64,000 bases of DNA from Pelagomonas calceolata. Lineage: Eukaryota. A model generated the notes under the pieces. That model was not told the origin of the DNA. It saw nothing but the letters and a program-made list of their open reading frames with translations, and did no database searches. Position 1 is the first letter of the stretch. The number at the start of each line of letters is the position of its first letter. The translations under genes and the position numbers were made by a program. Positions 2,979 to 40,613 of this stretch are shown piece after piece. The stretch covers positions 1,116,001-1,180,000 of the forward strand of contig CAKKNE010000005.1 of assembly GCA_918797485.1 (NCBI GenBank). Reading direction: 5' to 3'.

Positions 2979-3128
2979 GGGCTTGCTGCAGTAAGTCGCA
3001 CGCTTGCAAGGAAGCTATGCCGCAGCGACTGGCGCAGCAACGGGCTGTCGCCAGGCTGCAAATCCAATGCAACTGGGCTGTTTGTGGGCGTCGCAGCGCG
3101 TGTAAAAATGGGGTCAAAAATTAATCAG

Positions 3129-3150
3129 CTAGCGGTCAGTAAGACACTAG
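3129..3150 (+). promoter_or_regulatory. CTAG-GTAAGACA-CTAG upstream motif (representative copy in a divergent gap)
   Basis: CTAGCGGTCAGTAAGACACTAG; one of 15 copies. Confidence 0.7.
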
Positions 3151-3328
3151 CAAGAATTGTGGGGCAGCCTCTCCGCGCGTAGGTAGCCGCATAGCTCGCG
3201 ACGCGCTGGCAACAAGGCCTCCTTGGCTTCCTGAACCCCCGTCGGTGCGAAATCCTGAGCTGTAGCCTCGGAAATTGATGCTGCCACTGTGTACCATAAG
3301 CTGCTGCCCTAAACGCCATCGACGCGCC

Positions 3329-3814
3329 ATGCCCAAAATACTCTACGTCTGCACGAGCAACACCTGCCGAAGTCCAGCCGCCGCGACGATCGCGCGCGCG
3401 CACCTTGAGACAATCGGGCGGACGGATGTCGAGATAACGAGCCGCGGCCTCACCGACCGCTATTCCGCGTGGGGCTCGGGCCCGGACCCGCGCGCCGAGA
3501 AAGCTTTACAAAGGGCCACGGGCCTGTCGAGCGCGGGCCACGCGTCCTCGAAATTAACGGCGACAGAAGTAGACGAGTGCGACGCGCTCTTCTACTTCAT
3601 GCGCGAGCACGTCGACTGGATCGCGGGCTGCGTCGGCGAGGCGCCGGTGCGGCGCGCCCTCGAGAGCGGCCGGTTGTGCATCGTGCACCCGCCGGACGGC
3701 ATTCCCGACCCGTTCTTCGCCGACGACGCGTTCTACGGCGAGGTCATGACGATGCTCGAGACGCACGTCGCGCGGTCGTTGGACGAGGTACTTGATAAGT
3801 TTACAACACGTTAA
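3329..3814 (+). CDS. Low-molecular-weight protein tyrosine phosphatase family
   Basis: P-loop ILYVCTSNTCRSP (CX5R) and IPDPF motif; ATG at 3329. Confidence 0.9.
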   Translation: MPKILYVCTSNTCRSPAAATIARAHLETIGRTDVEITSRGLTDRYSAWGSGPDPRAEKALQRATGLSSAGHASSKLTATEVDECDALFYFMREHVDWIAGCVGEAPVRRALESGRLCIVHPPDGIPDPFFADDAFYGEVMTMLETHVARSLDEVLDKFTTR

Positions 3815-3847
3815 ATAAAGCGTCGGCGGCGTGCGCCACGCGTCAGT

Positions 3848-4753
3848 TCAAGGCGCTGGCGGCGCGGGCTCGCTCGCCGGCGCGGCCGACTCGCCAGCCC
3901 CGAACATCTCCCCGAAGTAGTCGGGGTACTTCTCGACGCAAGCTTTCAGAGCCAGCGTCGGCTCTGCACAGGCCACCGCGAAGTCCGCCTCTTTCTTCTC
4001 TTTGTCCTGTTCGCCATTCTTCGCTTCCACGTCGTCGAGACACGCCTCCCACACTTTAAAGACGGCCGCACACGGCGAGTCCTCCATGAACTGACAGAGG
4101 GGGCATTTTAACGAAGGCTCCACGAGACAAGTCTCGTCCCTCCAAAAGTCCGCGCGGCAGACCGTGCCACTTAACGGCGCTTCATTGGTAGGTGGCCACG
4201 GGTCGCCCGAGGACCCCTCCACGGCTTTCTTCGGTTCCGCATGATTGAATGCCGCCTCACCGATCTTCAGCACCGCCGTCGTTGAACCACTGGCCTTCAC
4301 CTCCGTCCCGTCGCACAGACAAGCCCCTCTCAGGGCACCGTCGCTGTCGGCGCCGACGACTCGAACCGTCGCCCTTTCGCCGTAGAGCGAGCCGTACATC
4401 TCCGGTCGTTTTTCTAGCCCTTCATCTAGCACAAACAAAGCCGTCGTGCTGTCCTTGTCGGGCCATTTCTCCGCGAGCCGTTTCCGCGACGCGTCGTCCA
4501 AGAAGACGCCGACCCGCGGCGCGGTGTCCGGCGTCGGTTTCGGTTTTTCTGGTGGCGGCGTCGCTGTCGTCTGTGGTGGCGTCGCCGTCGTCTGGCGCCG
4601 CTGGAGTTGCGCCGCTGGAGCCGCCACGGAGTTGCGCCGCTGCAGCGAGGATGTCTTGCGCTGGCGCGGCGCCTCGGTGCTCTGCTCGGCTGCTGCGTAC
4701 GGTATAGTAGCAGCGAGCGCTGCGCCGCCGCGCGCGGCGAGGGTTCGCAGCAT
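3848..4753 (-). CDS. GCK-domain (twin CX9C-like) protein, probably mitochondrial
   Basis: CPLCQFMEDSPCAAVFKVWEAC...CAEPTLALKACVEKYPDYF; presequence-like N-terminus. Confidence 0.7.
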   Translation of the reverse strand: MLRTLAARGGAALAATIPYAAAEQSTEAPRQRKTSSLQRRNSVAAPAAQLQRRQTTATPPQTTATPPPEKPKPTPDTAPRVGVFLDDASRKRLAEKWPDKDSTTALFVLDEGLEKRPEMYGSLYGERATVRVVGADSDGALRGACLCDGTEVKASGSTTAVLKIGEAAFNHAEPKKAVEGSSGDPWPPTNEAPLSGTVCRADFWRDETCLVEPSLKCPLCQFMEDSPCAAVFKVWEACLDDVEAKNGEQDKEKKEADFAVACAEPTLALKACVEKYPDYFGEMFGAGESAAPASEPAPPAP

Positions 4754-5164
4754 GGTCTATTGCACTCGCTGTGCTGCTCGGTGGTGAACAGCCGCAGTTG
4801 CGCTGCGATGCGCTGCACAGCGATCACAGCGATCAAAAGCAATGCTTTCGCGTCCCAAAACAAGGCAGCGTCCACAGCTACGGGCTTGCGCCGCGAATGA
4901 GTGCTTCGCTAGTATCTTACAGGACTCTAGCTGAAAAAATATAACTTGGCTTTGCCGCAGCAACAGGCGCCTGCGCTCGCGCCCTGAGGGCCCGTGAAAG
5001 CCTGACTGTGCTGCCAGCGACCACTGCTAAGCACAGCAGCCAGCCCGACGTCGCCGACGCGGCCGAGCCACTACAGGTCGCCAGGCGCTGCATTGCCGCG
5101 CGGCAGGTCGAGACGCTGTACGCGCGCACGCCGTCGACGCAGCGCAGCACCCAGCGGCTAAAAC

Positions 5165-6940
5165 ATGGCCGCCGCCGTCCGCCCCATGCCGCAGCGCGCC
5201 CAGTCGGGCCCCACGGCCGTGCTCTTCGAGGACGACCCCGTGCGGCGCTACGAGCGCGACGCGCCGGCGCCGGCGCGGTCCCCCAACAGAAGACCGCCGC
5301 CCGTGCGCACCGGAAGCTGTGTGGGAGATGCGCCTTCTCCTAGAGAGAGCATGGGCGCGCGGCGACGGCGACGGTCGCAGGAGCCCCGACCTCGAAGTAG
5401 ATCCCGGTCCGGTTCCGTCACGTCGCGCTCCGGCGCGCGCTCGTTAAGCCCCCAACGGACCCAACTTTCCCAGAGGAGACGATCTTCCTCAAATGGGGAC
5501 CTCAATACGACAAAAGACGACATTGAATTACCAGCGATTGATTTTCAACCACCTACCTTACAAACGTCGTCGTGGCGCGACCTGCTGGCCTTCGCCTGGT
5601 CCGAGGCTTTAGGTGATCGCCACGCCTTTGGGTTAGATGAAAATGTGACTTCGGAAATCGACAACTTCCTGCTGGTCCCGGCGCGGTTCGAGCGGTTCCT
5701 CTGGTTCGGGCTGCTGGCTTGCCTAGATACGTTTTTATATGCGGTGACCTTCCTACCGATACGTGCTTTTGTAGCATTGTACTCTCTACTGGCTTTGGCT
5801 TTACGGATAAGACCACAGGAACCGCGCTCCCCGGGAAGCCCGCGCAACTTAAGGCCGCCGGCCTTCTCGCGGGCGCAAGCTTATGATTTGGCGCGATGCG
5901 TCGTCGTAGCGGCAGGTGTTGGAGTGTTACGAAGGGTACCACTATCCAGAGCTTATCATTGGATCCGGGGCCAGAATACGATAAAGCTATACGTTATCAT
6001 AGGCATCATGGAGGTTTTTGATAGGTTGCTGTGTGCCTTCGCCCAGGACGCGTTAGATAGCTTCTACCTGTCGACGCGAGGTGCGCTCGAGACGATACAA
6101 AATACGAGGAAGTCGGCCGTGTTTCTGTCACTCGTGACGGTGGTGACCGTGGCCCACGCTCTGTTGTTATTTGTACATTTAACCACATTAAATGTGGTGG
6201 TCAACGCCAACGAAGCAACGGCACTCTTTGCGTTACTCGTGTCAAATAACTTCAGCGAGATAAAGTCGACAGTGTTCAAGAGGTTTACGCCCTTGACTTT
6301 ATTTGACATCACGGCGGCCGACGTCTGTGAAAGGTTCAAACTTGTTTTGTTCTTGGCTCTGCTGTACTTGCTGGGCTGGGCGCAAGTCGCTGGAGATGCG
6401 ACAGAGAGTCGAGCCAGTCTAGAGGTGGTCCGCTTCCAAAGTCTCAGTGTCTTGGGCTTCGAGGTCGTGGCGGACTGGCTCAAGCATGCGTTTGTTGCCA
6501 AATTTAATAGAGTAGACGCGTCTGCTTATGATGCTTACGCTGAGAGAGTAGCTCGAGATGTCGTTACCGGTCGACGGGGCGGCGACGCTGGTTTTGCTTT
6601 AGATCATACGCAGGCCGTTACGAGACGACTATCCTTTCCTTTATTACCGCTGGCGTGCGTCGCCGTGCGGTACGCCGCGTTGAGTCTTGGTTGGTTACGA
6701 TTGAGTTTGGAGCTATCACCGTATGCGGTGGCGGCTTTGGCTTCCCTGGGCTTCCTGCTATTAGTGCAGCTCAAGCTGCTCACCTCCATATGTCTGGCGG
6801 GCGTCGCGGTCGGGCTCTGCCCCGACGAGGCGGCGACGCCGGCGCCGTTGAAGTCGCCGCGGCGCGAGGCGCGGTCGTTCCACGACCTGCCCGCGCTGCG
6901 GAAGACCGGGTCCCAGACCCTGGCGCGGGCTAGTGTATAG
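5165..6940 (+). CDS. TAPT1: TAPT1/Emp65 (DUF747) ER membrane protein
   Basis: CLDTFLYAVTFLPIR, YHWIRGQNTIKLYVI, LLVSNNFSEIKSTVFKRF, DWLKHAFVAKFN. Confidence 0.92.
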   Translation: MAAAVRPMPQRAQSGPTAVLFEDDPVRRYERDAPAPARSPNRRPPPVRTGSCVGDAPSPRESMGARRRRRSQEPRPRSRSRSGSVTSRSGARSLSPQRTQLSQRRRSSSNGDLNTTKDDIELPAIDFQPPTLQTSSWRDLLAFAWSEALGDRHAFGLDENVTSEIDNFLLVPARFERFLWFGLLACLDTFLYAVTFLPIRAFVALYSLLALALRIRPQEPRSPGSPRNLRPPAFSRAQAYDLARCVVVAAGVGVLRRVPLSRAYHWIRGQNTIKLYVIIGIMEVFDRLLCAFAQDALDSFYLSTRGALETIQNTRKSAVFLSLVTVVTVAHALLLFVHLTTLNVVVNANEATALFALLVSNNFSEIKSTVFKRFTPLTLFDITAADVCERFKLVLFLALLYLLGWAQVAGDATESRASLEVVRFQSLSVLGFEVVADWLKHAFVAKFNRVDASAYDAYAERVARDVVTGRRGGDAGFALDHTQAVTRRLSFPLLPLACVAVRYAALSLGWLRLSLELSPYAVAALASLGFLLLVQLKLLTSICLAGVAVGLCPDEAATPAPLKSPRREARSFHDLPALRKTGSQTLARASV

Positions 6941-24553: not shown

Positions 24554-25169
24554 CATAGTCTACTCCTCGCGGAGGCGCCGCATCGGCATGCTTCGGCGTG
24601 ACTAAGGCTCGGGGCGACGGCGTGCGAGGGCCGGGGGCCGGGGGCGGGGTGGGCACTACGCTCAATTTATTATGTCTCCATGCGCCTCCCCGACCGGTCC
24701 CCGAGCAGTACAGCGCCAGGAAGACTCATCCTGGCGCGGTCCCAAAAAAAGTAAGCGGCGCTGTCGGGCCCGGGCGCTGGCATTCTGTTTGCCTGTGTTG
24801 CGCCTCGCCTCGGGCGTGTAGAAGGTAAACCACCACTGCAGAAGGGCCAAGATGGCAGCCCAATCGAGTGCCAGCGGCTCCGGCAGCGATTCCGCCGATG
24901 CGCCAACAAAAAAAAAGAAAAAGCGCAAACGCAAAAAAAAATAAAGCGCTAGCGTCTGTTGAGACACTAGCAAGCAAAAGCCCAGGTTTGGCTGGTGGCC
25001 TAGTTGTGCCTTCCGCACAAGTTCGCCAACGAGCTCGACACGAGCGAGCCACGGACGCCGAGCACGCTGCGCAAGTGTCTGCTGCCCCAAAAAGCAGCAG
25101 GAAGTCCACTGAAGGGCAGCACCAAGCCCACAAAGGCCACCGCCTCCGCGAGGCACGCGACGGCCGAAG

Positions 25170-28100
25170 ATGGACCGTGGCGCTTCGCCACGAACGGGAG
25201 ATGTCGGGAGCGGGCCCGGCGGGACCAAAGATGCGCACAAGAAGGCCTTGGGGCCCCAAGACGGCGGCGGCGGTCCGTCGACGGTAATTGCTTTGGGTGG
25301 AAACGGGTCGGGCTCGTCATATCCGACGAAGCCCGTCGATCTAGATGCTGATACGAAGAAACGTTACCGTCCACGCCATTTCAAACGTGTGAAAGAACGC
25401 CGCAACCGACGTAAGCGTGATCAAGATGAACGCCTTTTCATCAAAGGTCTGAAGGCGAAGGCTACCAACGAAGAGCCGAATCGGAAAGAACGTCGCGAGG
25501 GTGTTCAGGGTTTTAAACCGCCCAAAAAAACAGTAAAATTGAGCGTTCCGCCGCCCAAGACCGTGATCGTAGATGATGGCTCAAACAAGTTTGGCTCTCT
25601 TCGTGTGGAAAGCGAAGTCCCCTCTCTTATTTCTAAGACCACAACCATCTCTACCACTACATCTGTCGAGGAAGACGTTTATTGGTCGCCATGCGAATCT
25701 ACCGATAAACCAGTTATTTCCTACAAAGTAGAAGATCTTGATCCAAAGGATGAACGTGACTCTAAGATTTGCAACGTCGTGCTGCGCGGTAATCACTATA
25801 TTAATAAACAAGAGCGTCGCACGACCTTCGTGGGGGCTCTGAAGACGCACTTCGACGCGCATAAGTCTGGTGATGACGGCCTGTCGAAGAAAGAGGTGAA
25901 CGCCGCGCTCAAGTCCTTTGCCAAGAAAGATAGAACGGGCAAGTTCCGGAAGCTCGAGGAGCTCGAGGCGCTGTTTGGAGACATGGATCTGAACGGCGCG
26001 GGCCGCGTGTCCTACGACGAGCTGACGGACTTCATCGACGACATCGACGCCGACGACATCGGCGCCGGCCGCAATCACCGCGGGAAGGGTGCCGGTGGTA
26101 TCAAAACGATTTACCTAAAAGAAGATCGTGTTCCTAAATTAGATTACATTTACCGTGAAGACCTACAAGTGACTTATTCTCTAAAATTAGGACGGTTGAA
26201 ACTGCGGTTGAAACTGCGATATATAATTCAGCAATTGGCCTTCCGTCGTCAACACAAGGTGTCATTGAAGGTGACCCACCTGATGGCTGAGACCTTCAAA
26301 CACAACTTGATGTTCCTAAACAACATTCCTAACAAAGATGTGGTGGTGTCTCATGGGCTTCTGGCGCTGCCTTCTACTTCCGCCTTCGACGGCGCGGCGA
26401 CTGCTGCGCCCGGCGAGGCGTCCTTCGAGGGCCAGCACGCGGCACTTGCGGCGCTGGGCCAGGCCGTGCTCGCGGCGCTGGGCGTGGCGTTCTTCCAGGG
26501 CTCGACTCCTATCGATGTCGTCGGGGGCTACGTTTTCTCGCTGGACGTCCTCGGCGACGCGCTATCTCTGGACGTGCTGACGAACTCAAATGTGCTTCAC
26601 AAGACGGGCTTCATGGGCGCGGCGCCCACGGTGGTCTTCTTGGGTGGTTCGGAGGGACTCAACGCCCTCTTGCTGGACGCGTCGGCGGCCGCGGCGCTCG
26701 ACGGCGTGTTCAAGGGCCTCTTCGGCGTCGCTGCGCTTCGCGGGCAACCGGTAGTCGTGGGCGCGGCGCCGGACGTGCCATGGTATAATTCTTCGGACGG
26801 CCTAGACGTCTTCTCGGGAAACCTCTGCCAGCGGGCTGGCGGCGCGCGGCTCGTGGGCGCGTTGACGGATTCATTAGATGGGCTACGGACGGCGAGCCTC
26901 GCGGTGGCGGTCGCGGACGCGGCGTGCGTCCAGGGCTCGGCTTCGCTCGACGTCGCGTTGTGTCAGAACTCGCCGCGGGCCGTCGCGCGGCTCGTGGGCG
27001 CGCTCACGGATTCACTAGATGGGCTACGGAAGGCGGGCCTCGCGGCGGCGGTCGCGGACGCGGCGTGCGTCCAGGGCTCGGCTTCGCTCGACGTCGCGTT
27101 GTGTCAGAACTCGCCGCGGGCCGTCGCGCGGCTCGTGGGCGCGTTGACGGATTCATTAGATGGGCTACGGAAGGCGGGCCTCGCGGCGGCGGTCGCGGAC
27201 GCGGCGTGCGTCCAGGGCTCGGCTTCGCTCGACGTCGCGTTGTGTCAGAACTCGCCGCGGGCCGTCGCGCGGCTCGTGGGCGCGTTGACGGATTCACTAG
27301 ATGGGCTACGGAAGGCGGGCCTCGCGGCGGCGGTCGCGGACGCGGCGTGCGTCCAGGACCCGGAGGCAGTCTTGTCCGACAAACCCTTGTTAGCGGAGGC
27401 CATGGAGGAAGATCGACTCGATAGTATGAAAGAGCAAAAAGTGATACAAATATTGGTCATGACCGCCTCGGGCGCGATGCCCTCTGTTTTTGTGAAGCCG
27501 TGGGCGACTGTCGGTGACCTCATGCTCGTGATCCAGCAGATGATGGATGTTCCCCTGTCAAAATATCAGCATCTGCAGTCCATCGGCGGCAGACCGATGC
27601 AAAACGCAGCTTTGCTCCAGCACTACGACATCCAGAATAATTCTACTGTGGTTTTGTCGGAGCCCTGGCCTGGGCATCTTCTAGGAGGCTCGTTGTTGTC
27701 GTTGAAAGAGCTCATTGACAAGGGCAGCCTAAACGTGGGCGACATCATCGTCTTCAGGGAACACAATCACCAAGAGGAAGGCGAACTGCTCGAGAACGGT
27801 TGGATCAGGCACGAGGGCACAGTCTACAAGTCGGCGAGTGCGTTCGTGGGGGCGATGCGCGGGAAACCTTCAAGCGGATATGACTTTCTCTATACGGCTA
27901 CCGGTACGCCGATCCAGTCGCTCCGCAGCGACCCCTCCGACAGTAGCTCGAACGGCGACGACTTGCGCAGCGACTCGAACAGCGACGACGAGGCGCCCCC
28001 GCAGCCGCCTGGGGACCAGCAGCTCGCGGGCCGGCGGCGGCGCCAGCCAACCGAGCGCTTTGATCATCAAACGCAAGTGGGCCAGTATTATGTGAAGCGT

Positions 28101-31100
28101 GGGTCCGCTGTGGGTGGCGCAGACGACGGTGACGACGACGTGGTCATGGAGGACGATGACGAGCAGTCCCAGCTGCAACAAGCTCTGAAAATGTCCATGC
28201 AACCTATGGGAGAGGGATTTGTGGAGGAGACGACCGCGCCGACGCTGCCAGCGACGCCGGGCGCGGCGCCGGACCACGCGCGGCCCGGCGGCGTACCGCC
28301 ACCACCTTCTCTCCCACCGGCGAAGCGCTCGCTCCAACCCGCTTCGCCGACCTCCGGGAATGTCAAAGTGTTCTTCGACGACAACTTCCTGCCTAGCGAG
28401 TCCGTTTTACAGGGACTGAGGAACGCGGGCGTCAGGATAGTGGGTCGGCCGCGCGACGCTACGCATATCGTGTGCGAGGAGCCGCTACGACTTTCGCTTA
28501 CTTTTACCGCTGCCAGCTGCGTCGTGGACCATGCAGTGACGCACGAGTGGGTAGAGGCTACCATCGAGGCCGGTCGCCCCCTAGAGGCGACGAACTACGT
28601 TGTGGACAGCCACGAGCTCGAACAAGATGTTGGATTTAATCTCGCCGATAATTTGAGGCGGAACCGTGAGGCGGTGGACCGCTCGGAATTACGCCTGCTT
28701 CAGGACAAGGTCGTGTGTGTAGATCCGGACTTTCAGTGGCGACGTGATCTATTGGATGATTTGCAGGAGATGATCGACTGCTCTGACGCGATGCGGCTCG
28801 AATTTAGTGATGTGGTCGACTTAGACGGCACCCTACCGCAAGAAGGAGCCATCATCATCTGTAAAGACGACAGTGGGCTAGTAGATGAGGCGATTGTGGA
28901 CGATATCGCGTCCCCAACCACTGTAGTAAAGTACTGGGATCTCTGTGAGTACCTTCTGAGGAGGGCGTACCCCTGGGACGAGGCTACTGGGGATGCGCAA
29001 GCCCCGGGCCAGCCACCGGCGCATGCTCCTCCTAGAGATGTAGAGGACTGGCGCTCTTTGATGGGCGCTACGGTTGTAACACCTGAAGGCAGCAATGGGC
29101 GCTGTGTTGCGCTCCACGTGGACTCATCCTCCGAAGAAGATCGGGAGCTCAGCGAATTAAGATGGGAGGCAGGAGGTTTCATAGAAGAAGGTTTGCTTCG
29201 TAGAAATGTTGGATTCGTCGAGTTCGAGGCCGTGTCGCCCAGCGATGGCTTGCCCCACGTCTTGCGCTGGGATGGTGCACCGAAGCCTAATGTGAGGGGG
29301 ACGTTCGACGTGGTTTTCGCCGACGGCACTCCAGCGACCGTCGATCGTATTATGACCTGGCTCAGACCTGACCAGTGGAGCTCTTTATCTCGGTTGCCGG
29401 ATGGGTGCTGGTGCCGCCCTCTAGCGAGGGAGCCCCAGGATGAATGGGGACGGATCGTGGGGACCCTGAGGTCGCCCGATCCAGGTCTACTTTATGAGGT
29501 TCGCATGCAAAACGAGGAACGATCTATTAGTGTGATGGAGAGCTCACTGGTTCCCATCGTCCTGGTCCGAGATACTACCGGGCATTTGTCGCCCTACGCC
29601 GTGTCGGCGCTACGGCGCCCCGCTTCGCAAGGGGCTGATGGCGGGGACGTCCAAACTGGCGGAGATCCGAGTCCGCCACCGGCTCCACCTGCTCCGCGGG
29701 AGGCACTGCCAGAGGAAGCTGGCAATTGGCCAAAAGCTTTCATTGAACTGCTGCGCGAGAAGAAGGTGAAGTGCAAATTTAAGAGTCCGAATCCCAAGCG
29801 CGGAGCAAGTGCTGCTCGCTATGATGGGTATATGCGCGCCACCAATATCGGGGATTATTACGACATCTTCCGCGGCAACATGAGTGATCTGCGGAACGAT
29901 ATCACTAAGGGCTACTGCCAGCTCGACAAATCGGAGCGCGACGACGCGTGGCTCGAGTACTTGGAGTCGGGCGAGGACTTACAGTCGAAGGCCGAGAAGC
30001 CGAAGGCCAAGAAGCCGAAGGCCAAGCCCGCCGCTAAATCGGGCGCCGGCGCCGAGGACACTACTGATGAGGACATGTTTGGCACAAATACGACCCCTCC
30101 GGCAGAGCCCCTCGTACTGCCACCTGACTGGAACGAGAGCAAGCAGCGGGCCAAGGACCCTGAGTTGGAAGCAGCGGTGTGTGCGCTGGGCGCCGCCCTC
30201 ACGGGCAAGACGAGCTTTACTAAGGAATGGGACCTACTCTTGAAGCATCGCTGTTATTGTTTTTATATTCACGAGGACGATCCAGCTAATAAAGCAGTGA
30301 AGAACCTCGAAGTGCCGATCGGTTGGCCGTCATACAAGGAGTTCAGCAAGAGCCCCAAGAAGAATAAACCTTCCAGCCTGAGGTTGTTGCGCCAATACCT
30401 CAAGTATGCACTGCAACTCGCGAAGGAAGGCGACAAATACTGCCTAGACGACGAGCAGAGCGAAAGCAATCGCTTTTGGCCGGAGGAGCGGGAGAAATTT
30501 CACGGGGCCATGGCGACGCTCAACATAAATCGGAGTGGGCGCGGCTTATCGAGGGAGGACTGCCGCCGGATCGCGGAGCACCTACCCAACAAAACACCTC
30601 AGCAGGTCCATGCGCACGCTTGTTCTTACTTCAGCTCCTTCGATGCGGAAGCGCAAGCTATTGAAAAGCTCACTAGTACTGGCGACTCCTACGTGAAGTC
30701 CGTCTTGGGCACGGACACCATCAACACGTCTGAGCTCCTCTTCTGCATCATCTCCACAGGCCGGTGGATCGATGCCAAATTCATTGAATTGAGACTGTCA
30801 AAAGCTGGCCTAGAAGCGTCACAAATACTGTGGGTTGTGGGCACCCCGGAAGAAGTGGCCAAGTACAAGTCGCAATGCTCTGGTGAAGTAGTAGTAGGAG
30901 GCGGTCTCTCTGCGTCGAGAAACAAAGCTCTAGAAACGGCCCGAGCCCGCAACCGCGTGTGCGTGCAACTGAGGGACAGTGTTTGGAAGTGCGTGGTAAT
31001 ACAGGAGGGGCCTGAGGAGGGCGGGTCGCTAGCTGATTTCTACAACAAGAACGGTCTGTGGAAAGAGCCACCGAGTCTGGAGGCGGCCAATACCACGGGC

Positions 31101-32765
31101 TCGAAGAACGTGGAGGTGACACTCGTGGCCGCGGCCTTGTTGTTGCACGATTTGATGAAAGCGAGGGACAAACGCTTGGCGGGCTGCTTCCCTGTCCCGA
31201 ACAAGGGCTTCGCCGCAAGCAAGGAACCGGTGCAGCAGCGGGAACTTGTTGATGAAAGGCTGTTGGTAATCGACCCGGAGGGCACCAAATTTGACGAATC
31301 ATTGAATTTCAGGGAGGTCGACGAGTTCACGGCGCAGCACATCCACAAGTACGACGGGATTTATAGATCAAACCGCGTGCTGTGTGTGGGACAAGGCCGC
31401 AAGGGGAAGACCTGGGTCACCCCGGAAGGACCTAGTGAAGAGGATAAACAGAACGCCATCGATTCACTGCTCAATAAGCATCGCGACTTGTTCCGTGAGA
31501 GGATCATCCACAATAGAACAACACGCCCGCACGATAGGTATGTGTTGAGTTGGGAACAGGACGCCTCTTCGGAGCCGAAGGACCAAAATGAGACCATGGA
31601 GGACGTGCAGCCCGGCGAGCAGACCGTACTGTCTACACAACTACCGTTCGACGCCGGGTCTTTGGCGGCCCTGGAATGTCCGTCGGTACCTATGCGAGAA
31701 CTGACCCCAGAGGACAAATTTATACGCTTCGCGTTTCTGGCGCGCGAGACGGTCGAGTGTGAGAACGGTAGAGAAAGCAAGGCTGCCCTGATTGTACCAC
31801 ACGAAGCGGGGAAAGAACACGAACCCCATAAGGGTCAGCTTCGCGTGCTCGCTCAGTTAGTGAAAGGTAGGTTCACCCACAAGGTGAAGTTCGCATCACG
31901 TGCTTCTAAAAAGCTTACTATTTTGGGCGAGGACGATTATGGCTTCGAATTTAAACCGACGGAGGCGCCTGCGATGTACAGAGATACGGAGTGCATTTTT
32001 GTGCTGGATCCCAGGGCCAAGGGTAGTTCTTTCATACCCCGATGTGCCCATGCGAAAGGTTTTGTCACACTCGCCCCTGGATGTGCGTGCGGCTTAGAGT
32101 GCCCTGGTTCTCAAATGGAGATCCACCAGCACCATATCACTGCGCATGAACGCGACTGCCTCTTGGCCCCATCCACACACTGCATCAACAGTGGGTTGCT
32201 CGCCAGCGGCATTTGGGGAAGGCAACGACCCTTACACGAGCAGCTCAACAAGCTCTGGGGGATGATCAAGCATCAACATTCCATTAACGATAAAACCTTT
32301 GTCCATCTAGCCGAGATCTCGGTTCCAGTTGAAACTAACCAAAAGTCTGGCGAAGCATATCCTGGAAATGCTACTCTAATGAATGCATTCAAACCAGGCG
32401 GCGAATTATCTAAGCACTTGAAAGTAGCTGATCCTACTCGTGTACATGAGCTGCTGCCAGAGGGTCTGCCCGACGACGTCGCGACGGGGGGCACGTACTA
32501 CGAACTCAAGAAGGATAGTGAAAAATACTTCCCGTTCTGGGGCCGGGACACGCTTCTCTATTACGAATCGAAAAAAACGCTGTCCGTTGTTTATGGGAAA
32601 TGCCCCATAACAGGAGTGGGCGGACGAAAGACGAAAAGAACCACTCGGCTCCTTGTGCTACACCACATCACAGTCGATAAAAATAAGGAATGCTTTGTTG
32701 GCTTCATCAACGACAATGTGAACAGGGGCCTCGGCAGCACCGACGCCCCGGATCCGTTTGCCTAG
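25170..32765 (+). CDS. 2531-aa mosaic protein: EF-hand, 47-aa repeats, ubiquitin-like, RAMA-like, UIM, BRCT, SANT/Myb, GREB1/TAGT-like glycosyltransferase fold
   Basis: Uninterrupted 7.6-kb ORF; domain motifs listed in findings. Confidence 0.8.
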   Translation: MDRGASPRTGDVGSGPGGTKDAHKKALGPQDGGGGPSTVIALGGNGSGSSYPTKPVDLDADTKKRYRPRHFKRVKERRNRRKRDQDERLFIKGLKAKATNEEPNRKERREGVQGFKPPKKTVKLSVPPPKTVIVDDGSNKFGSLRVESEVPSLISKTTTISTTTSVEEDVYWSPCESTDKPVISYKVEDLDPKDERDSKICNVVLRGNHYINKQERRTTFVGALKTHFDAHKSGDDGLSKKEVNAALKSFAKKDRTGKFRKLEELEALFGDMDLNGAGRVSYDELTDFIDDIDADDIGAGRNHRGKGAGGIKTIYLKEDRVPKLDYIYREDLQVTYSLKLGRLKLRLKLRYIIQQLAFRRQHKVSLKVTHLMAETFKHNLMFLNNIPNKDVVVSHGLLALPSTSAFDGAATAAPGEASFEGQHAALAALGQAVLAALGVAFFQGSTPIDVVGGYVFSLDVLGDALSLDVLTNSNVLHKTGFMGAAPTVVFLGGSEGLNALLLDASAAAALDGVFKGLFGVAALRGQPVVVGAAPDVPWYNSSDGLDVFSGNLCQRAGGARLVGALTDSLDGLRTASLAVAVADAACVQGSASLDVALCQNSPRAVARLVGALTDSLDGLRKAGLAAAVADAACVQGSASLDVALCQNSPRAVARLVGALTDSLDGLRKAGLAAAVADAACVQGSASLDVALCQNSPRAVARLVGALTDSLDGLRKAGLAAAVADAACVQDPEAVLSDKPLLAEAMEEDRLDSMKEQKVIQILVMTASGAMPSVFVKPWATVGDLMLVIQQMMDVPLSKYQHLQSIGGRPMQNAALLQHYDIQNNSTVVLSEPWPGHLLGGSLLSLKELIDKGSLNVGDIIVFREHNHQEEGELLENGWIRHEGTVYKSASAFVGAMRGKPSSGYDFLYTATGTPIQSLRSDPSDSSSNGDDLRSDSNSDDEAPPQPPGDQQLAGRRRRQPTERFDHQTQVGQYYVKRGSAVGGADDGDDDVVMEDDDEQSQLQQALKMSMQPMGEGFVEETTAPTLPATPGAAPDHARPGGVPPPPSLPPAKRSLQPASPTSGNVKVFFDDNFLPSESVLQGLRNAGVRIVGRPRDATHIVCEEPLRLSLTFTAASCVVDHAVTHEWVEATIEAGRPLEATNYVVDSHELEQDVGFNLADNLRRNREAVDRSELRLLQDKVVCVDPDFQWRRDLLDDLQEMIDCSDAMRLEFSDVVDLDGTLPQEGAIIICKDDSGLVDEAIVDDIASPTTVVKYWDLCEYLLRRAYPWDEATGDAQAPGQPPAHAPPRDVEDWRSLMGATVVTPEGSNGRCVALHVDSSSEEDRELSELRWEAGGFIEEGLLRRNVGFVEFEAVSPSDGLPHVLRWDGAPKPNVRGTFDVVFADGTPATVDRIMTWLRPDQWSSLSRLPDGCWCRPLAREPQDEWGRIVGTLRSPDPGLLYEVRMQNEERSISVMESSLVPIVLVRDTTGHLSPYAVSALRRPASQGADGGDVQTGGDPSPPPAPPAPREALPEEAGNWPKAFIELLREKKVKCKFKSPNPKRGASAARYDGYMRATNIGDYYDIFRGNMSDLRNDITKGYCQLDKSERDDAWLEYLESGEDLQSKAEKPKAKKPKAKPAAKSGAGAEDTTDEDMFGTNTTPPAEPLVLPPDWNESKQRAKDPELEAAVCALGAALTGKTSFTKEWDLLLKHRCYCFYIHEDDPANKAVKNLEVPIGWPSYKEFSKSPKKNKPSSLRLLRQYLKYALQLAKEGDKYCLDDEQSESNRFWPEEREKFHGAMATLNINRSGRGLSREDCRRIAEHLPNKTPQQVHAHACSYFSSFDAEAQAIEKLTSTGDSYVKSVLGTDTINTSELLFCIISTGRWIDAKFIELRLSKAGLEASQILWVVGTPEEVAKYKSQCSGEVVVGGGLSASRNKALETARARNRVCVQLRDSVWKCVVIQEGPEEGGSLADFYNKNGLWKEPPSLEAANTTGSKNVEVTLVAAALLLHDLMKARDKRLAGCFPVPNKGFAASKEPVQQRELVDERLLVIDPEGTKFDESLNFREVDEFTAQHIHKYDGIYRSNRVLCVGQGRKGKTWVTPEGPSEEDKQNAIDSLLNKHRDLFRERIIHNRTTRPHDRYVLSWEQDASSEPKDQNETMEDVQPGEQTVLSTQLPFDAGSLAALECPSVPMRELTPEDKFIRFAFLARETVECENGRESKAALIVPHEAGKEHEPHKGQLRVLAQLVKGRFTHKVKFASRASKKLTILGEDDYGFEFKPTEAPAMYRDTECIFVLDPRAKGSSFIPRCAHAKGFVTLAPGCACGLECPGSQMEIHQHHITAHERDCLLAPSTHCINSGLLASGIWGRQRPLHEQLNKLWGMIKHQHSINDKTFVHLAEISVPVETNQKSGEAYPGNATLMNAFKPGGELSKHLKVADPTRVHELLPEGLPDDVATGGTYYELKKDSEKYFPFWGRDTLLYYESKKTLSVVYGKCPITGVGGRKTKRTTRLLVLHHITVDKNKECFVGFINDNVNRGLGSTDAPDPFA
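26844..27357 (+). repeat. 141-bp coding tandem repeat, about 3.6 copies
   Basis: Near-identical units start at 26844, 26985, 27126, 27267. Confidence 0.95.
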
Positions 32766-34288: not shown

Positions 34289-37200
34289 TCAGTTCTTGCC
34301 GGGACCCCAGTCGTCGTCGGAGTCGTCGGAGTCGTCCTTGGGCCGCTTTCGTTTGACCTTCTTGCGCGGCTTCTTGGGCGGCTCCATCGACGACGTGCGC
34401 TTGAGCGGCTGGTCCTTGGGCGGCCGGCCGCGCGGCTTCTTCGGACGGTCTTGTAAATCGCCGTCGTCCTGCTCTTCAGCTAATAATCGGCCGAGATCCA
34501 CGACCAGCGACGAGCGCACGGACCCGCCCCGGTTCGTCCCGACGGCCGCCAGCGCACTGCGAGAGAAGAGCGGCCCGCACACCAGCGGAGAATCGTCACG
34601 AATCGCACCTAACTGTTTATCGCAGTCGCCGTCGTAGGCCGCACACCGCGCGTCGCCCAATCGGTGCCTTCGCTTGATGTGGGCCTTCAAGCGACACAAC
34701 AACGAAAAAGCACCACATCTAGCGGCATCTCTAGCAGACACGTCAGAAGCATCCCTCAGCGACTCATGGAGAGCAGCCCCATCGAGCGCACAAGCCCGGG
34801 CACACGCTCGAATAACCATGAGCGGCTCGTCGGCCGTCCGGAACGGCAACGAACCCAGGGCCCTACAGGTGGCCGCCCGTTTCCCGAGCCAATTTGATAA
34901 ATCTCCGTCTTTCGCAGGGAGGTCGTTCGGCGTGACGAAGACATCCAAAGCGGACTTGAGGGCCTTGGCCCTCGCTGCTCTACCTTCGCAGCACACTTGG
35001 TACGACGTCCCGACGGCCTTGAGGATGGGTAGCGGGATTTCGTCGGAGTAGCGTCTCGCCGACGCGCACGCGTCCGCGAAGCCTTCCGAGAAGCGTAAGG
35101 CTACGAGTTGCGGTCTCTTGGCAGCGGTCTCCCTCAAAGCATCCGCGGCGGCGTCCCGGACCTTTTGCAGCTCGTCGCCATGTCTTCCGACTAGTAGAGG
35201 CGCTATATCTCGGGGATTCGCGAGGCCGTGCCTCAGGACACCGTTCAGGAACGTGACTGACGCGCATCTCACGTCCCCATCGCGGTCTTCCAAGAGTGTA
35301 GAAGCCCTCGCTAAGCAAGCCTGGGCGCACGCCGCCGCGGCCTGGAAGGCGCCCTCGGCGTCCTCTCTCAATGACTCATCATTGCATACGACACTTCGCA
35401 CGGACTCCGAATCGGAAGCGTGCTGCGCTCGAGCGGCTCGATCGCACCCATCCAGGACGTCCGCCCAGCCTCGCAAGGAAGCAGCTCTCACAGAAGCGTG
35501 GGGATGACTTAACAACCTCTCCAACAATCCGTCTGAACGTGCAGCGTTCGCGAGGCGCGGCGCGCCGGCGACAGACGCACACGCCGCGGAAGCCGCTCGC
35601 GCCGCCGCGGCATCATTGGAAGACGCCTCGCGCGCGACACACGCAAACACGGCGCCGTGCGGGTCCCGCATCCGCGCTAATGTACTGGGCTCGCTCTCGT
35701 CGTCCGGAGCGCCTCTGGCCAGGCCGCACGCCCAATCTTTTGCCACACATCCTAGCACTAAGGCCGCCCGTCCCACGTGCCTTCTCCTCCTCAGCAAGTC
35801 GTGACACAATGCGGCCAAACGCCACAGCGATCTTCCAGCCTCGGTGTTCGACCTCGTTGCGTCCAAGGCAGCGAGACAAGCGACGGCTGCCGTCGTCGGC
35901 GCGCTTCCTCGGGAGTTCAGGGCGGCCTTCTCGAGATCAGGTGAACATCTAGCTGCCAAGGAAGCTGATGCTGGTCTAGGTAGAGCACTACACGCGGCGT
36001 GAATGATCTCCGCGGCCTTTTGCACCGCTGCGGACTCGCCCTTCTCATCCAACCCGTTGTCGCCTCGCAGATAGGGTGCTATCACATCTAATGAGGGAGC
36101 CACGGTTTCCGGAGCGCTCCGCGCGAAGGCTCGGATCGCACTCAGTGTCATGACAACATCAGAAGCGCTCTCTTCGGTCAAGGAACCAGTTATGATAGTG
36201 TGCTTGTCCGGCGTCGTCTGGGGCGTGACCTTCCCGTCCGAGCGGGATCCGTCCAATCTAACCAAGTGATCAGCCAAGTGCGCGACGTGCTGTTGGGCTC
36301 GCAATCGCGCAGACGCCGCCTTCCTGGACTTCCCGTCCTGCTCCGTGAGGGCCATGGCGAAGACCGCCCCGATCGTTTGGTCATCTCCGGCCGCAGACAC
36401 GACGTCCACAACTTGCCTCGTAATTGGGTCGAGGCGATACGCGGCCTCCTTGATGCGAGGAGCGTCCGTGACGCTGGGAGACACGCGCGGCAACAAGCGA
36501 GGCGCCGCCACGTCAGCAACGGGCGCGAACCAGGCCTCGCGGATGCAGTCTCTCACTAAGTCCTTGACCGTTCGTTCCTCACTCGGACGAGCGGCACATC
36601 TAACAAGAGCAGCTAACGTGCGCGCCCGCGCATCGGGCGGTATTCTCGCATCCGTCAGCGTCGTCTTTAGGCGGCGGGCGGTGGCTTTTCTGACGGCTAG
36701 GCCCGCATCTCTCAGTCTCTTCAAGAGGTCCTCTTCGTAATGAACGAAGAGCGACGGCTGCTGCTGGCACTTCGTGCCGCACACTTCCACCGCGGCGAGT
36801 CTGACACTGGGAGACTCGTCGGCGAACCTAGACCGCATGGCCTGCTGGACGACGTCTCTTTCCAGTAGGTGATCACACGACGCTCGGCCTAGGGCTCTTA
36901 GTGCTTTGTCCCGCACCTTCGGCTGAAGGTGGGCCAGCAAGCCTACCAATTGCTTCGCTAGTAATGATAACCCTCGCGCCAATGGTGAACCTTGGACAAT
37001 AGCGCACGCGACGCCTCGCAATTTGTCGCGCGGTAGAGCTGCGTCCCACGAAGCTCTTCGAACTCTCGCCACGTCCCTGCCCGCGAATTGCGATGCTAAA
37101 TGGCGCTTCAACGCCTTGGCCGAGTCGGGGAGCTCGGCGTGCCATTTTGCCACACTGTATCTAAGAGCTTCGCCACAGAGCGGCTCTGACGACGAGCGCG

Positions 37201-38560
37201 CCTCGAGGCCGTTGAGCTGGAGCTGCTGGAACGCCACCAACGCTTCCAAGCGCTGGTTCTCCTCGGGCACGTCACAAGCCCCGCCTTGCTCTTGCACGAC
37301 TGGTGTTACTGATGAGGTAGCCCGTTTTGTTACTGCAGAGACGCCGCCCACAATGACAGCCAGCAAGTCCCCGAGGAAGCACACATAAGGTTCGGCCTTT
37401 CGATCCGACGGGGCCTTCCTCAGTTCTGTGCTAGCAGATCGAGCTAACGACCTTAACACGCTTTCACTTGATGAGGACCAGGCCGGCGCTTCTAACGCCG
37501 CAACTAGATCTGACGAGAAGGCTAGAGCTAGGTCGCGCCAGTCGCTTTCGTTCGGGCCCTCCCGGCACCTTCTGAGTAGAGCTCCCGTCAACGCATTTGA
37601 ACATCTTTCACTTTCCGTCACAGACGGGACCTCCTCCGCCAGAGGCACGCAGGCCTCGGTGATAACTAAGGCCAGGACCGACGCCCACCGCGCGGAACCG
37701 CCCAAATCATCATCTAGAGCTATTCTCGAAGAAGACGTCTCCGTCCGTAAGACATCTAACCAGTCTTCTAGTAATGCGGCTCGATGCGACGGGTAGCTTC
37801 GAGCCGCAGCGCGCCACACTAACAAAGCGGTTGGCGTGCCCCTGGTCTGTAGTATAACACCAGCAGCACCACAGGCGGCCGCGACCGCGGCGTCCTCCAA
37901 TGCCCGGGAAGCGATGAGGTCTGATAATGCAGTCAACCCCTCCTCGACGTCGAGGCCGGCGCGCGCCTGGCGCCGTAATTGCTGAGCCCGCTCGTTTGTT
38001 CTTTCGGCAGAGGCGTACGCGCCGCCGCGCTCCGAGGCTAGTGTGAGTGTGGTAGCGCAGGCCTCTAAAGCTACTTGGTCATCCTTGCAGGCGTCGTCGA
38101 GCAGCTGGCAGGCCCTTTCTTCGTCGTTCGTGGCGCACTGCGCGAGCGCGCGGACGTCGTCCTTCGTTAACGACTCCTTGGCTTCGAGCGCGTTCAGGAG
38201 AGCGAGGGCGTCCTCCGGCGGCGCTGCTTGCTTCTTCGGCGGCCGGCCGCGCTTCTTCGGCGGCGCGGCCGGCGGCGCGTCCGTGCGGCGCCGCTTCTCG
38301 GGCGGCGGCTTCGAAACGACGGCCTCGCCGCGCTTCTGGCGCATCTTGCTTTTCAGGGAGGGCTCGGCGTAGCTCGCGGGCGAGCCGGCGCTTCGCCGGC
38401 GGCCCGTCGTGCTCGTCGGCAAGGGCGCGAGCGGCGGCCGCGGCGGGCTCGCGGCGCGCTTCTTGCTCGCGAAGACGTGGCCGCAGGGGCACCTCGCCTT
38501 CCTGGCGTGGACCTTGGCGTCGCAGGCCGGGCAGGTTTTTTGGGGGCCGCGGCCACTCAT
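34289..38560 (-). CDS. NIPBL: Cohesin loader Scc2/Nipped-B-like
   Basis: HEAT motifs VRDKALRAL, DESPSVRLAAVE, LRDAGLAVRK; C-terminal LRHGLANPRDIAPLL and LPFRTADEPLMVI. Confidence 0.88.
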   Translation of the reverse strand: MSGRGPQKTCPACDAKVHARKARCPCGHVFASKKRAASPPRPPLAPLPTSTTGRRRSAGSPASYAEPSLKSKMRQKRGEAVVSKPPPEKRRRTDAPPAAPPKKRGRPPKKQAAPPEDALALLNALEAKESLTKDDVRALAQCATNDEERACQLLDDACKDDQVALEACATTLTLASERGGAYASAERTNERAQQLRRQARAGLDVEEGLTALSDLIASRALEDAAVAAACGAAGVILQTRGTPTALLVWRAAARSYPSHRAALLEDWLDVLRTETSSSRIALDDDLGGSARWASVLALVITEACVPLAEEVPSVTESERCSNALTGALLRRCREGPNESDWRDLALAFSSDLVAALEAPAWSSSSESVLRSLARSASTELRKAPSDRKAEPYVCFLGDLLAVIVGGVSAVTKRATSSVTPVVQEQGGACDVPEENQRLEALVAFQQLQLNGLEARSSSEPLCGEALRYSVAKWHAELPDSAKALKRHLASQFAGRDVARVRRASWDAALPRDKLRGVACAIVQGSPLARGLSLLAKQLVGLLAHLQPKVRDKALRALGRASCDHLLERDVVQQAMRSRFADESPSVRLAAVEVCGTKCQQQPSLFVHYEEDLLKRLRDAGLAVRKATARRLKTTLTDARIPPDARARTLAALVRCAARPSEERTVKDLVRDCIREAWFAPVADVAAPRLLPRVSPSVTDAPRIKEAAYRLDPITRQVVDVVSAAGDDQTIGAVFAMALTEQDGKSRKAASARLRAQQHVAHLADHLVRLDGSRSDGKVTPQTTPDKHTIITGSLTEESASDVVMTLSAIRAFARSAPETVAPSLDVIAPYLRGDNGLDEKGESAAVQKAAEIIHAACSALPRPASASLAARCSPDLEKAALNSRGSAPTTAAVACLAALDATRSNTEAGRSLWRLAALCHDLLRRRRHVGRAALVLGCVAKDWACGLARGAPDDESEPSTLARMRDPHGAVFACVAREASSNDAAAARAASAACASVAGAPRLANAARSDGLLERLLSHPHASVRAASLRGWADVLDGCDRAARAQHASDSESVRSVVCNDESLREDAEGAFQAAAACAQACLARASTLLEDRDGDVRCASVTFLNGVLRHGLANPRDIAPLLVGRHGDELQKVRDAAADALRETAAKRPQLVALRFSEGFADACASARRYSDEIPLPILKAVGTSYQVCCEGRAARAKALKSALDVFVTPNDLPAKDGDLSNWLGKRAATCRALGSLPFRTADEPLMVIRACARACALDGAALHESLRDASDVSARDAARCGAFSLLCRLKAHIKRRHRLGDARCAAYDGDCDKQLGAIRDDSPLVCGPLFSRSALAAVGTNRGGSVRSSLVVDLGRLLAEEQDDGDLQDRPKKPRGRPPKDQPLKRTSSMEPPKKPRKKVKRKRPKDDSDDSDDDWGPGKN

Positions 38561-39050
38561 GGCGCCGCGGTGACCTTCCCGGGCTTTTTGATTTAAGGCT
38601 GTGTTCTCGTCACAGGCGCGCGAACGCGTCGTCGCGTCGCGGCGCCCAGCTCAATTGCAAGTAGCTGTACTGCTGCGCGAGCTGTGTGGCTGCGCGGCGC
38701 GCTATTGGCTGTGTGCAGGTCAATTAACTCTTGCCGCCGCGGGAGACCAGGCTCTGCATTTTGAGTGTGAGAGCCAAGTCGAGAAGCTGAAAGACTCGTC
38801 GCCGCAGCCTTCCGATCCCTCGCGTACAGCTACAAGTCGCCGCGAAGCGCACGGGCCTAGCTGCGAGACACTCTAGAAGCAGCAGCAAAGCAACCTCGGC
38901 GTCGTCGCCGCGACGCGCAGCGGTGCTGTAGCGGGGTGCTGACCCGCGATTTCCATAGCCCCAGCAGTGCTGCGTGACCAGCGCAGCGATTTGCAAGAAC
39001 GCACAACCAGTGCTGCAGCACAGGCAGAGTGCTGCAGGCAGCACTGCAGC

Positions 39051-40613
39051 ATGCAAGCCCTCGACCGCTGCCTCGGCGAAGCGACCACCGATGAGAACGC
39101 CCTCACCACCGCGCTGGCATTATTACCAACAACCGTCGCCTCGCTCGACGCGCAACAATACAATGAGGTACTAACAAAAGTAGCAGCGATCGACGACGAC
39201 GGGACCGTCGCGGCGCTCACGACACCATGCATACATCAAGCATCATCAGACCAGCTTGCAAAGGCGCCCGACGCGTTAGCAACTTGTGTCCAGAAGTGCC
39301 TCGCCGTCGAAGACAGCGCGTCATTATTGGCCTTCGTCGAGAAGCGGCGGGACTGCGGGTCTCAGTGCGCGGCGTTGCTCGAAAAGGCCGCTCAGAATCT
39401 AGCGGACCGCTGCTCCAAAGAAGCGGCGCCGGAGGCGTTGGAATTACTGGCTGCTTTGTTGGGGGCGTACGCCGACGTGCGCTGCAAGGCCGAGCCCCTG
39501 CAAAAGGCGTTGGGCGAGTCCGAGGCGCGTGTGAATGCTCAACGCTGCCTGGCCGTCCTCTGGAGTCGGGGCCCCGCCGATAGTTTCGCGGCCGCCGCCG
39601 CGGGCGTCCTGAGCAATCTCGAGGCGGCCGAGGCCGCGCCGGGCCCCGTCGCCGCGGCCGAGGCTTTAATTATGGCCGCGCGCACCCGCAAAGACGGCGC
39701 GCCGCTGCCCCTGCCGCGGCTGGTCCGAGCGGCGATGAAACATACAACGCTGATCCCTTCGTTGATGGATGCGCTGCCGGCGTCGATCACGCGGCGCCAC
39801 GGCCTGAGTTTAATGAAGGCAGCTTTGGGCGAGTGCCAGCGGACGCGGTGGCGCGACGCGCCGACCATAAGGGCCCTCGCGACCGTGAGTAGCGCCTTGG
39901 GCGCGGGAGGGGCCGAACTCGTCGACGACGCGGTCGCTCCTTTAATCAGAGCCGCCCTGGCGGCGTCGAGCCCGCGCGCGCCGACGGACGAGGCGCCGCC
40001 GCCGGAGACGAAGAAACGAAAAAGGAGGCGGCCGCCGCGGCGCGCGCCGGCCAAGGCCCACTGGGACATTAGTGAGGCGGCACGCGCGGCGCTCGACGCC
40101 ATCTCTGTGATTGTGCACGCGTGCGGGCCGCGCCTCCGCGACCGGGCTTTGGTGGAACGCGCCGGCGCCGCGCTCCTCGACCACGCCCCTCTGGACCTGC
40201 GCCGCGCTACGTTAAATCTCGCCGCGGCGCTCGTCGCGGCGCCGCTGGACGGGCAGCGGAGCCCCCTCCTGGTCGCGGCGCGCGCGGCGGCCGTCGCGGC
40301 GCACGATACGGTCGAGACGCGCGCCGCGGCGTACCGCCTGCAGGCGGCCTGCGACGCGGTGCTGCGGCCGCGCTGCGCGCCGCTCGCGCCGCCGCGGATC
40401 GCGGCGCCGCCCGCGCGCGGCGACCTCCTCGCGGCGCTCTTCCCCGGCGACGACGCGTCCGCGTCCGACGACGACGGCGCGGCGGAGGCGGCGCCGCCGC
40501 CGCCAGCGCCGCCGGCGCCGCCGGCGCCGCCGGCCGCGCCGCCCGCCGCGCCGCCGGTCGCCGCGCCGCCGGTCGCGGACGACGACGACGAGTTTCCGGA
40601 AATTATCACATAA
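39051..40613 (+). CDS. Rix1/PELP1-like helical protein
   Basis: CDAVLRPRCAPL resembles the Rix1 HPRxPPL motif; Pro/acidic tail ending DDEFPEII. Confidence 0.55.
   Translation: MQALDRCLGEATTDENALTTALALLPTTVASLDAQQYNEVLTKVAAIDDDGTVAALTTPCIHQASSDQLAKAPDALATCVQKCLAVEDSASLLAFVEKRRDCGSQCAALLEKAAQNLADRCSKEAAPEALELLAALLGAYADVRCKAEPLQKALGESEARVNAQRCLAVLWSRGPADSFAAAAAGVLSNLEAAEAAPGPVAAAEALIMAARTRKDGAPLPLPRLVRAAMKHTTLIPSLMDALPASITRRHGLSLMKAALGECQRTRWRDAPTIRALATVSSALGAGGAELVDDAVAPLIRAALAASSPRAPTDEAPPPETKKRKRRRPPRRAPAKAHWDISEAARAALDAISVIVHACGPRLRDRALVERAGAALLDHAPLDLRRATLNLAAALVAAPLDGQRSPLLVAARAAAVAAHDTVETRAAAYRLQAACDAVLRPRCAPLAPPRIAAPPARGDLLAALFPGDDASASDDDGAAEAAPPPPAPPAPPAPPAAPPAAPPVAAPPVADDDDEFPEIIT

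Follow-up and report, generated by a model that had tools for sequence, protein, structure and literature searches.

A shugoshin-like SGO motif alongside a predicted zinc ribbon in the N-terminal tail of a Pelagomonas calceolata Scc2/NIPBL cohesin loader

The window analyzed here, a stretch of 64,000 nucleotides from Pelagomonas calceolata, carries an expressed Scc2/NIPBL cohesin loader on the minus strand at 34289-38560, encoded by a single, apparently intronless open reading frame of 1423 aa (P0001). The identification as Scc2, already made in an earlier note on this DNA, is borne out by a Nipped-B_C match above the Pfam cut-off (56.2 bits against 26.4, E 6e-15) together with HEAT matches, and by a PDB sequence search in which all four matches were NIPBL or C. 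thermophilum Scc2. It was further strengthened by a phmmer match to human NIPBL (2.6e-12) and by a FastTree tree that places P0001 with named pelagophyte Scc2. Pfam HEAT and Nipped-B_C matches and the alignment of a structural model assign aa 115-1345 (34526-38218, minus strand) to the HEAT/ARM loader core. Divergent from scc2 over ~490 bp lies an expressed plus-strand gene (39051-40613) with no Pfam or PDB match, the product of which has a C-terminal pattern that we take to resemble Rix1/PELP1. A plus-strand ORF of 2550 codons (25113-32765), which has internal repeats and lies in a lower-GC stretch (55-60%), gives weak matches to EF-hand, ubiquitin-like, RAMA, UIM, BRCT, and Myb domains.

Four stranded poly-A RNA runs from one sample place RNA on the scc2 strand from ~34030 to ~38700, with no splice joints, indels, or variants listed in the gene. 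Same-strand depth in the bin 38525-38705, which takes in the 5′ UTR region (38561-38705, minus strand), is 2.6-14.5 and drops to <1 upstream. Summed read depth is thin over 38163-38524 (5.3 and 2.2, with flanking bins at 13.6 and 34.7); these two bins are the most GC-rich of the gene (0.73 and 0.75), and depth residuals along scc2 drop as GC rises (Spearman −0.45, p 0.03). The frame is open over 34289-38650, with its first ATG at 38560 in the context GCGGCGCC ATG and no upstream ATG in the 160 nt before this start. The beginning of the frame can be regarded as coding because sister-clade Scc2 proteins, after the Met at aa 1, have their next one at 334, because M73, the sole early alternative Met in P0001, is Leu in that clade, and because GC3 of the tail is 0.93. 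The uninterrupted architecture of P0001 is repeated in six other full-length proteins (P0003, P0011, P0025-P0027, and P0030), all from independent metagenome or Logan contigs. A true start further downstream, the doubt that the earlier note had attached to its own reading, was rejected on these grounds.

AF2 models aa 34-111 as disordered, with the first helices at 115. Residues 107-330 of this model can be aligned with C. thermophilum Scc2 391-772 (Z 11.6, rmsd 4.3, 220 aligned), NIPBL 1193-1558 (Z 11.5, rmsd 3.6, 219 aligned), and 6yuf_D 211-572 (Z 10.5); Scc2 and NIPBL are the two best structural matches, yet they lie within 1 Z of importin-type or generic HEAT repeats. The modeled core likely begins at about aa 110-115, leaving a 110-residue tail at the position of the Scc4/MAU2-binding region of other Scc2 proteins. 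An N-terminal T/S-D/E-x4-LP[LF]P-type motif, presumably linked to MAU2 binding, was found in 12 of the 85 long Scc2 proteins scanned; the P0001 clade has a bare PPLAPLP without acidic context, in a region that is poorly conserved generally. In yeast, Scc4 binds residues 1-181 of Scc2 (PMC5610175, in excerpt). Searches with the tail itself returned nothing meaningful from PDB sequences and no usable ESM Atlas match for aa 1-120; the ESM Atlas leads for aa 4-38 all stayed below 0.9. A Foldseek search gave no match at E up to 0.001.

The motifs that had previously been named in this tail are all present and in place, read from the ATG at 38560 on the minus strand. The tail opens with a predicted compact four-Cys zinc ribbon (aa 8-31, 38468-38539, minus strand), in which CPACDAKVHARKARCPCGHVF (aa 10-30 of P0001) sets C10, C13, C24, and C26 in the spacing C-x2-C-x10-C-x-C. 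UPF0547, the family to which we take the ribbon of human C16orf87 to belong, matches this segment at 21.2-27.8 bits (E 2.8e-6 to 3.2e-4), below the Pfam cut-off of 29. Modeled with an alignment, the ribbon forms a small beta module with pLDDT ~80-84 over aa 11-30, and a 40-aa ribbon piece folded alone gave a poor model (pLDDT 60). The C16orf87 ribbon (C16/19/30/32) has the same spacing as that of P0001, and no function is shown for it in the available part of PMC13133221. The description of a UPF0547-like C4 element therefore holds for the four-Cys spacing, the conservation, and the modeled fold, and falls short at the Pfam cut-off.

A basic, Pro-rich linker, unexpectedly conserved in the sister clade, follows at aa 32-50 (38411-38467, minus strand). 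Two AT-hook-like sequences complete the basic elements: KRGRPPK at aa 103-109 (38234-38254, minus strand), an AT-hook-like or NLS-like patch that is not conserved, and a C-terminal patch at aa 1374-1385 (34406-34441, minus strand) within a basic/acidic tail. Both are below the Pfam AT_hook cut-off (16.3 bits on P0001 against 17.4), and RGRP occurs 29 times in the six-frame translation of the window. The N-terminal hook is present in none of the five full-length sister-clade proteins (0/5), the C-terminal RGRP is intact in 13 of the 20 cluster members reaching that region, and patches like the C-terminal one occur in P0005-P0008, P0039, and P0118. Both hook sequences exist as the earlier note had them, the cut-off and the lack of conservation of the N-terminal copy speak against their weight, and the AT-hooks of P0001 are, as far as sequence can tell, weak and labile.

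Between ribbon and core, the SGO motif RRRS..ASYAEPSLKSKMR occupies aa 54-74 (38339-38401, minus strand), with K72 at 38345-38347. Its Pfam Shugoshin_C match (33.5 bits, E 3.6e-8, cut-off 23.3) settles the earlier suggestion of a shugoshin-like motif in its favor. A profile of stand-alone shugoshins gives 31.4 bits on the same segment, a score biased upward because the nine shugoshin-type loci behind the profile were chosen by a pattern taken from the P0001 motif; the Pfam model is independent of that choice. Elsewhere in the window, the best score of this profile is 8.8 bits (1384 six-frame segments, 108,133 residues), and 5000 shuffles of aa 1-120 reach 8.0 bits at best, so that by these sequence comparisons the match exceeds chance. 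The motif is laid out as an Arg run followed by Y-x-E-P and the K72 helix, in a segment that AF2 predicts to be disordered. K72 aligns with K298 of S. pombe Sgo1 (the K of TKLR, column 58 of a 60-residue line in PMC5579357 Dataset EV1). That residue is the equivalent of human K492 and is required for phospho-H2A binding (PMC11774493 and PMC7041694, both in part); the equivalent lysine of Cryptococcus is dispensable for Sgo1 localization (PMC11774493, in part), and the general role of the SGO motif in shugoshins is covered in PMC4301718 (in part). P0001 as a shugoshin was rejected: the motif is N-terminal, after a zinc ribbon, Pfam gave no Shugoshin_N match at E up to 10, and no shugoshin coiled coil was found in the tail, with no helix before aa 115 in the AF2 model.

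Conservation was examined against the sister clade, in which P0003 is 76% identical to P0001 overall. Identity there amounts to 18 of 24 residues in the ribbon (aa 8-31, with all four Cys kept), 15 of 17 in the linker (aa 32-48), and 25 of 28 in the SGO segment (aa 49-76); the other disordered segments of P0001 give 23/39, 11/30, 14/26, and 38/59. Sister-clade Shugoshin_C scores are 17.7 and 15.1, below the cut-off of 23.3, and three diatom-type shugoshins with Thr at the position concerned also score below it (17.8-20.6). An SGO score of at least 18 bits was reached by 11 of the 179 proteins of the Scc2 search, all in two clades, with the next best at 6.7, in a set where 112 proteins have at least 900 aa and many distant models are perhaps N-terminally truncated. 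A homologue search with the tail alone returned P0003 only. The motif is absent from the Aureococcus proteins P0039 and P0050 and from P0033, P0035, and P0055; Chrysophaeum P0032 lacks its N-terminus. In FastTree, run on 32 of the 105 long homologues and flagged for composition bias, the P0001 clade and its sister clade are together sister to Aureococcus P0039 and grouped with Chrysophaeum P0032 and three further proteins. Conservation of the motif in pelagophyte Scc2 thus stands for the near orthologues of the two clades and does not extend to Aureococcus, P0033, P0035, or P0055. This suggests a recent lineage-specific gain of the SGO and ribbon module, unless the Aureococcus and related models are incomplete.

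In Aureococcus, the closest relative with a name, residue 11 of Scc2 aligns with residue 110 of P0001, and ~10-20 residues are modeled before its core; because the Aureococcus tail is nearly absent, the module would be inessential to pelagophyte loaders, or else the models are incomplete. The short tail of P0039 and P0050 (aa 1-10) opens with an RRSSRL stretch that, in our view, resembles the HMGN arginine-anchor acidic-patch motif and may tether the nucleosome in another way from this position. P0033 and P0035 begin with a stretch that looks Tudor/SH3-like by eye, with a weak Myosin_N match. A PHD finger was detected by Pfam in none of 11 pelagophyte-clade Scc2 proteins, compared with 4 of the 12 other Scc2 proteins scanned. 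Non-plant Scc2 proteins with a PHD are P0048, P0051, P0052, and P0054, and P0051 (Chrysoparadoxa) also has two Tudor domains; the Scc2 PHD has been published as plant-specific (PMC7304647, in part).

The occurrence of the SGO motif on other proteins was investigated by a degenerate DNA motif scan of metagenome contigs, which gave 32 loci, none of them at an Scc2 gene. By eye, these comprise 22 diatom-type long shugoshins, three longer GC-rich coiled-coil proteins, five tiny shugoshin-like genes, a strawberry-notch helicase (L015), and a likely chance match without a Pfam match (L024). The best 120 of 131 matches in an SGO profile search added Aureococcus strawberry-notch proteins in which AAA_34, Helicase_C_4, and Shugoshin_C are all above cut-off; Shugoshin_C scores of P0258, P0259, P0264, and L015 are 27.8-30.9 bits. 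In L015 (2017-5136, plus strand), the motif sits in a central disordered insert of the helicase. The Aureococcus strawberry-notch protein AANO005409 is filed as “Sgo” in PMC5579357 Dataset EV1 (in part), and this entry has the look of an orthologue assigned in error. In the same partial data set, the “Sgo” models of Thalassiosira and Albugo appear by eye to be fusions. Among the tiny shugoshin-like genes (~130-145 aa), the one in L027 lies between HORMA-domain and Rad51/DMC1-family genes (1391-6340, plus strand); a Rad51-family neighbor recurs in L012 and L032, and L023 has a similar HORMA-like ORF without a Pfam match. A conserved meiotic trio of HORMA, tiny shugoshin-like, and Rad51/DMC1 genes in GC-rich algae is possible. 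L005 was rejected as a source of the host shugoshin, as host RNA and contigs compared with this locus gave only two partial matches of 41-44 nt, from unrelated sequence.

The published pelagophyte annotation (PMC9481584 Supplementary Data 2, a partial table covering rows up to Pca_6p00990 and used as a lineage-level reference) lists Shugoshin_C on two genes, SCC2, which also carries an AT hook, and a protein kinase (row Pca_2p00380). The pairing of SCC2 with Shugoshin_C thus already exists there as an automatic label that receives no comment, and neither “shugoshin” nor “cohesin” has a match in the main text of PMC9481584. Among the titles and abstract openings searched, with few subscription journals covered, no paper describes an Scc2 that carries an SGO motif.

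Direct chromatin targeting by the Scc2 tail, as the earlier note had it, is plausible in light of this analysis. We lean toward a model in which the N-terminal tail uses its SGO motif, with help from the ribbon and the basic patches, to hold the loader directly on nucleosomes, and place this model slightly on the probable side. The disordered SGO motif, with its Arg run, Y-x-E-P, and K72 helix, would bind the nucleosome or H2A in the way shugoshins do, the zinc ribbon could, together with the basic patches, add DNA or chromatin contacts or promote nuclear import, and the module may be a recent lineage-specific reader replacing the PHD finger that pelagophyte Scc2 is without. General tethering is placed slightly ahead of targeting through Bub1 and phospho-H2A because a strawberry-notch helicase and a kinase bear the motif as well. 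PMC11148194 offered nothing on this subject. The latter proposal, which we regard as doubtful, is that the SGO motif reads Bub1-phosphorylated H2A and recruits the loader directly to pericentromeres, replacing the budding-yeast Ctf19-Scc4 route. It would fit the retention of all signature residues, K72 included, and the dependence of centromere-targeted loading in yeast on Scc4 bound to Scc2 1-181 (PMC5610175, in excerpt). It would also fit the lack of any row for MAU2, K11266, or PF10345 up to Pca_6p00990 in the pelagophyte table (PMC9481584, in part). The silence of this table on MAU2 is weak because it covers part of the annotation, lists neither STAG nor WAPL by name, and comes from a pipeline that dropped short single-exon genes without a match (PMC9481584, in part); its silence on a small shugoshin is likewise weak. 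One kinase in the same partial table has a BUB1-like best match (E 8e-11), but its two Mad3/Bub1 rows are TPR-only and without kinase, K02178 has 0 matches, and the Aureococcus MadBub is TPR-only, with Ectocarpus having one that includes the kinase (PMC5579357 Dataset EV1, in part). Judged on such matches, a pelagophyte Bub1 kinase is uncertain, and the presence of the motif on the strawberry-notch helicase also counts against a strictly centromeric reading. A bolder scenario, in our estimate unlikely, would make the SGO motif a portable tag gained independently by the loader, the strawberry-notch protein, and the kinase, with Scc2 reading phospho-H2A and loading at centromeres without Scc4/MAU2.

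The tail might instead serve mainly nuclear import or low-specificity DNA binding, with an SGO match that is convergent or relict and no histone reading. The K/R-rich clusters of the tail, the hooks that come and go, and the narrow phylogenetic range of the module would agree with this, as would the linker, which is conserved equally (15/17 over aa 32-48) and thus indicates that conservation is not motif-specific. Nevertheless, the specific Y-x-E-P-S-x-K-x-K-[LM]-R core is near-identical to that of stramenopile shugoshins, and shuffles reach ≤8 bits, which makes such a role quite improbable as the main explanation. The thin depth over 38163-38524 and the fused “Sgo” models of Thalassiosira and Albugo could point to a gene-model artefact, in which a shugoshin-like or zinc-finger gene was fused to scc2 or the start lies downstream. 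One stop-free frame, the lack of joints in the four RNA runs, the same architecture in six independent full-length proteins from other contigs, and a tail without the shugoshin coiled coil largely refute a fusion, and we consider an artefact of either kind very improbable.

If tethering through the SGO motif is correct, a loader with its own shugoshin histone-reading motif would provide a one-protein shortcut from centromere marking to cohesin loading. The SGO motif is usually taken as diagnostic of shugoshins. Here, three unrelated proteins from a single class of algae bear it, and one of them is filed as the Aureococcus shugoshin (PMC5579357). More broadly, the N-termini and inserts of Scc2 look like a hotspot for swaps of chromatin readers, including PHD, Tudor, and SGO with a zinc ribbon.

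Compared with known systems, P0001 shares the HEAT core, Nipped-B_C, and the fold of the first core segment with the Scc2/NIPBL/Mis4 loaders of human, C. thermophilum, S. pombe, and S. cerevisiae, but it is compact (1423 aa), with ~110 pre-core residues, and has the ribbon and SGO motif in place of a recognizable Scc4-binding N-terminus. With shugoshin/MEI-S332 it shares the SGO motif with its conserved Tyr, Glu-Pro, and K298/K492-equivalent lysine, whereas it lacks the N-terminal PP2A-binding coiled coil and, as a HEAT protein, bears the motif N-terminally. GC-rich algal contigs also contain small shugoshin-like genes that stand on their own (L005, L012/L027, L023, and L032). In the Aureococcus strawberry-notch proteins, nearly the same motif (SYAEPSLK core) lies within a disordered segment close to a small zinc finger, although the host protein is unrelated, the motif is internal, and the zinc finger is of RanBP type. 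C16orf87/HDIP, a chromatin-complex protein, likewise has an N-terminal C-x2-C-x10-C-x-C followed by a disordered region (PMC13133221, in part), a likeness limited to ribbon spacing and layout. Tetrahymena Scc2 functions without an identifiable Scc4 (PMC6208729, in part), and plant PDS5 has also gained reader domains (bioRxiv 10.1101/2025.05.08.652912, in part). In land plants, the PHD of SCC2 is a histone binder and SCC4 is not required for meiosis (PMC7304647, in part), which offers the parallel of a lineage-variable reader within the loader and a proposed bypass of SCC4 in meiosis; the P0001 module differs in that it combines an SGO motif with a C4 ribbon and is N-terminal, while the PHD is internal and missing in the P0001 clade.
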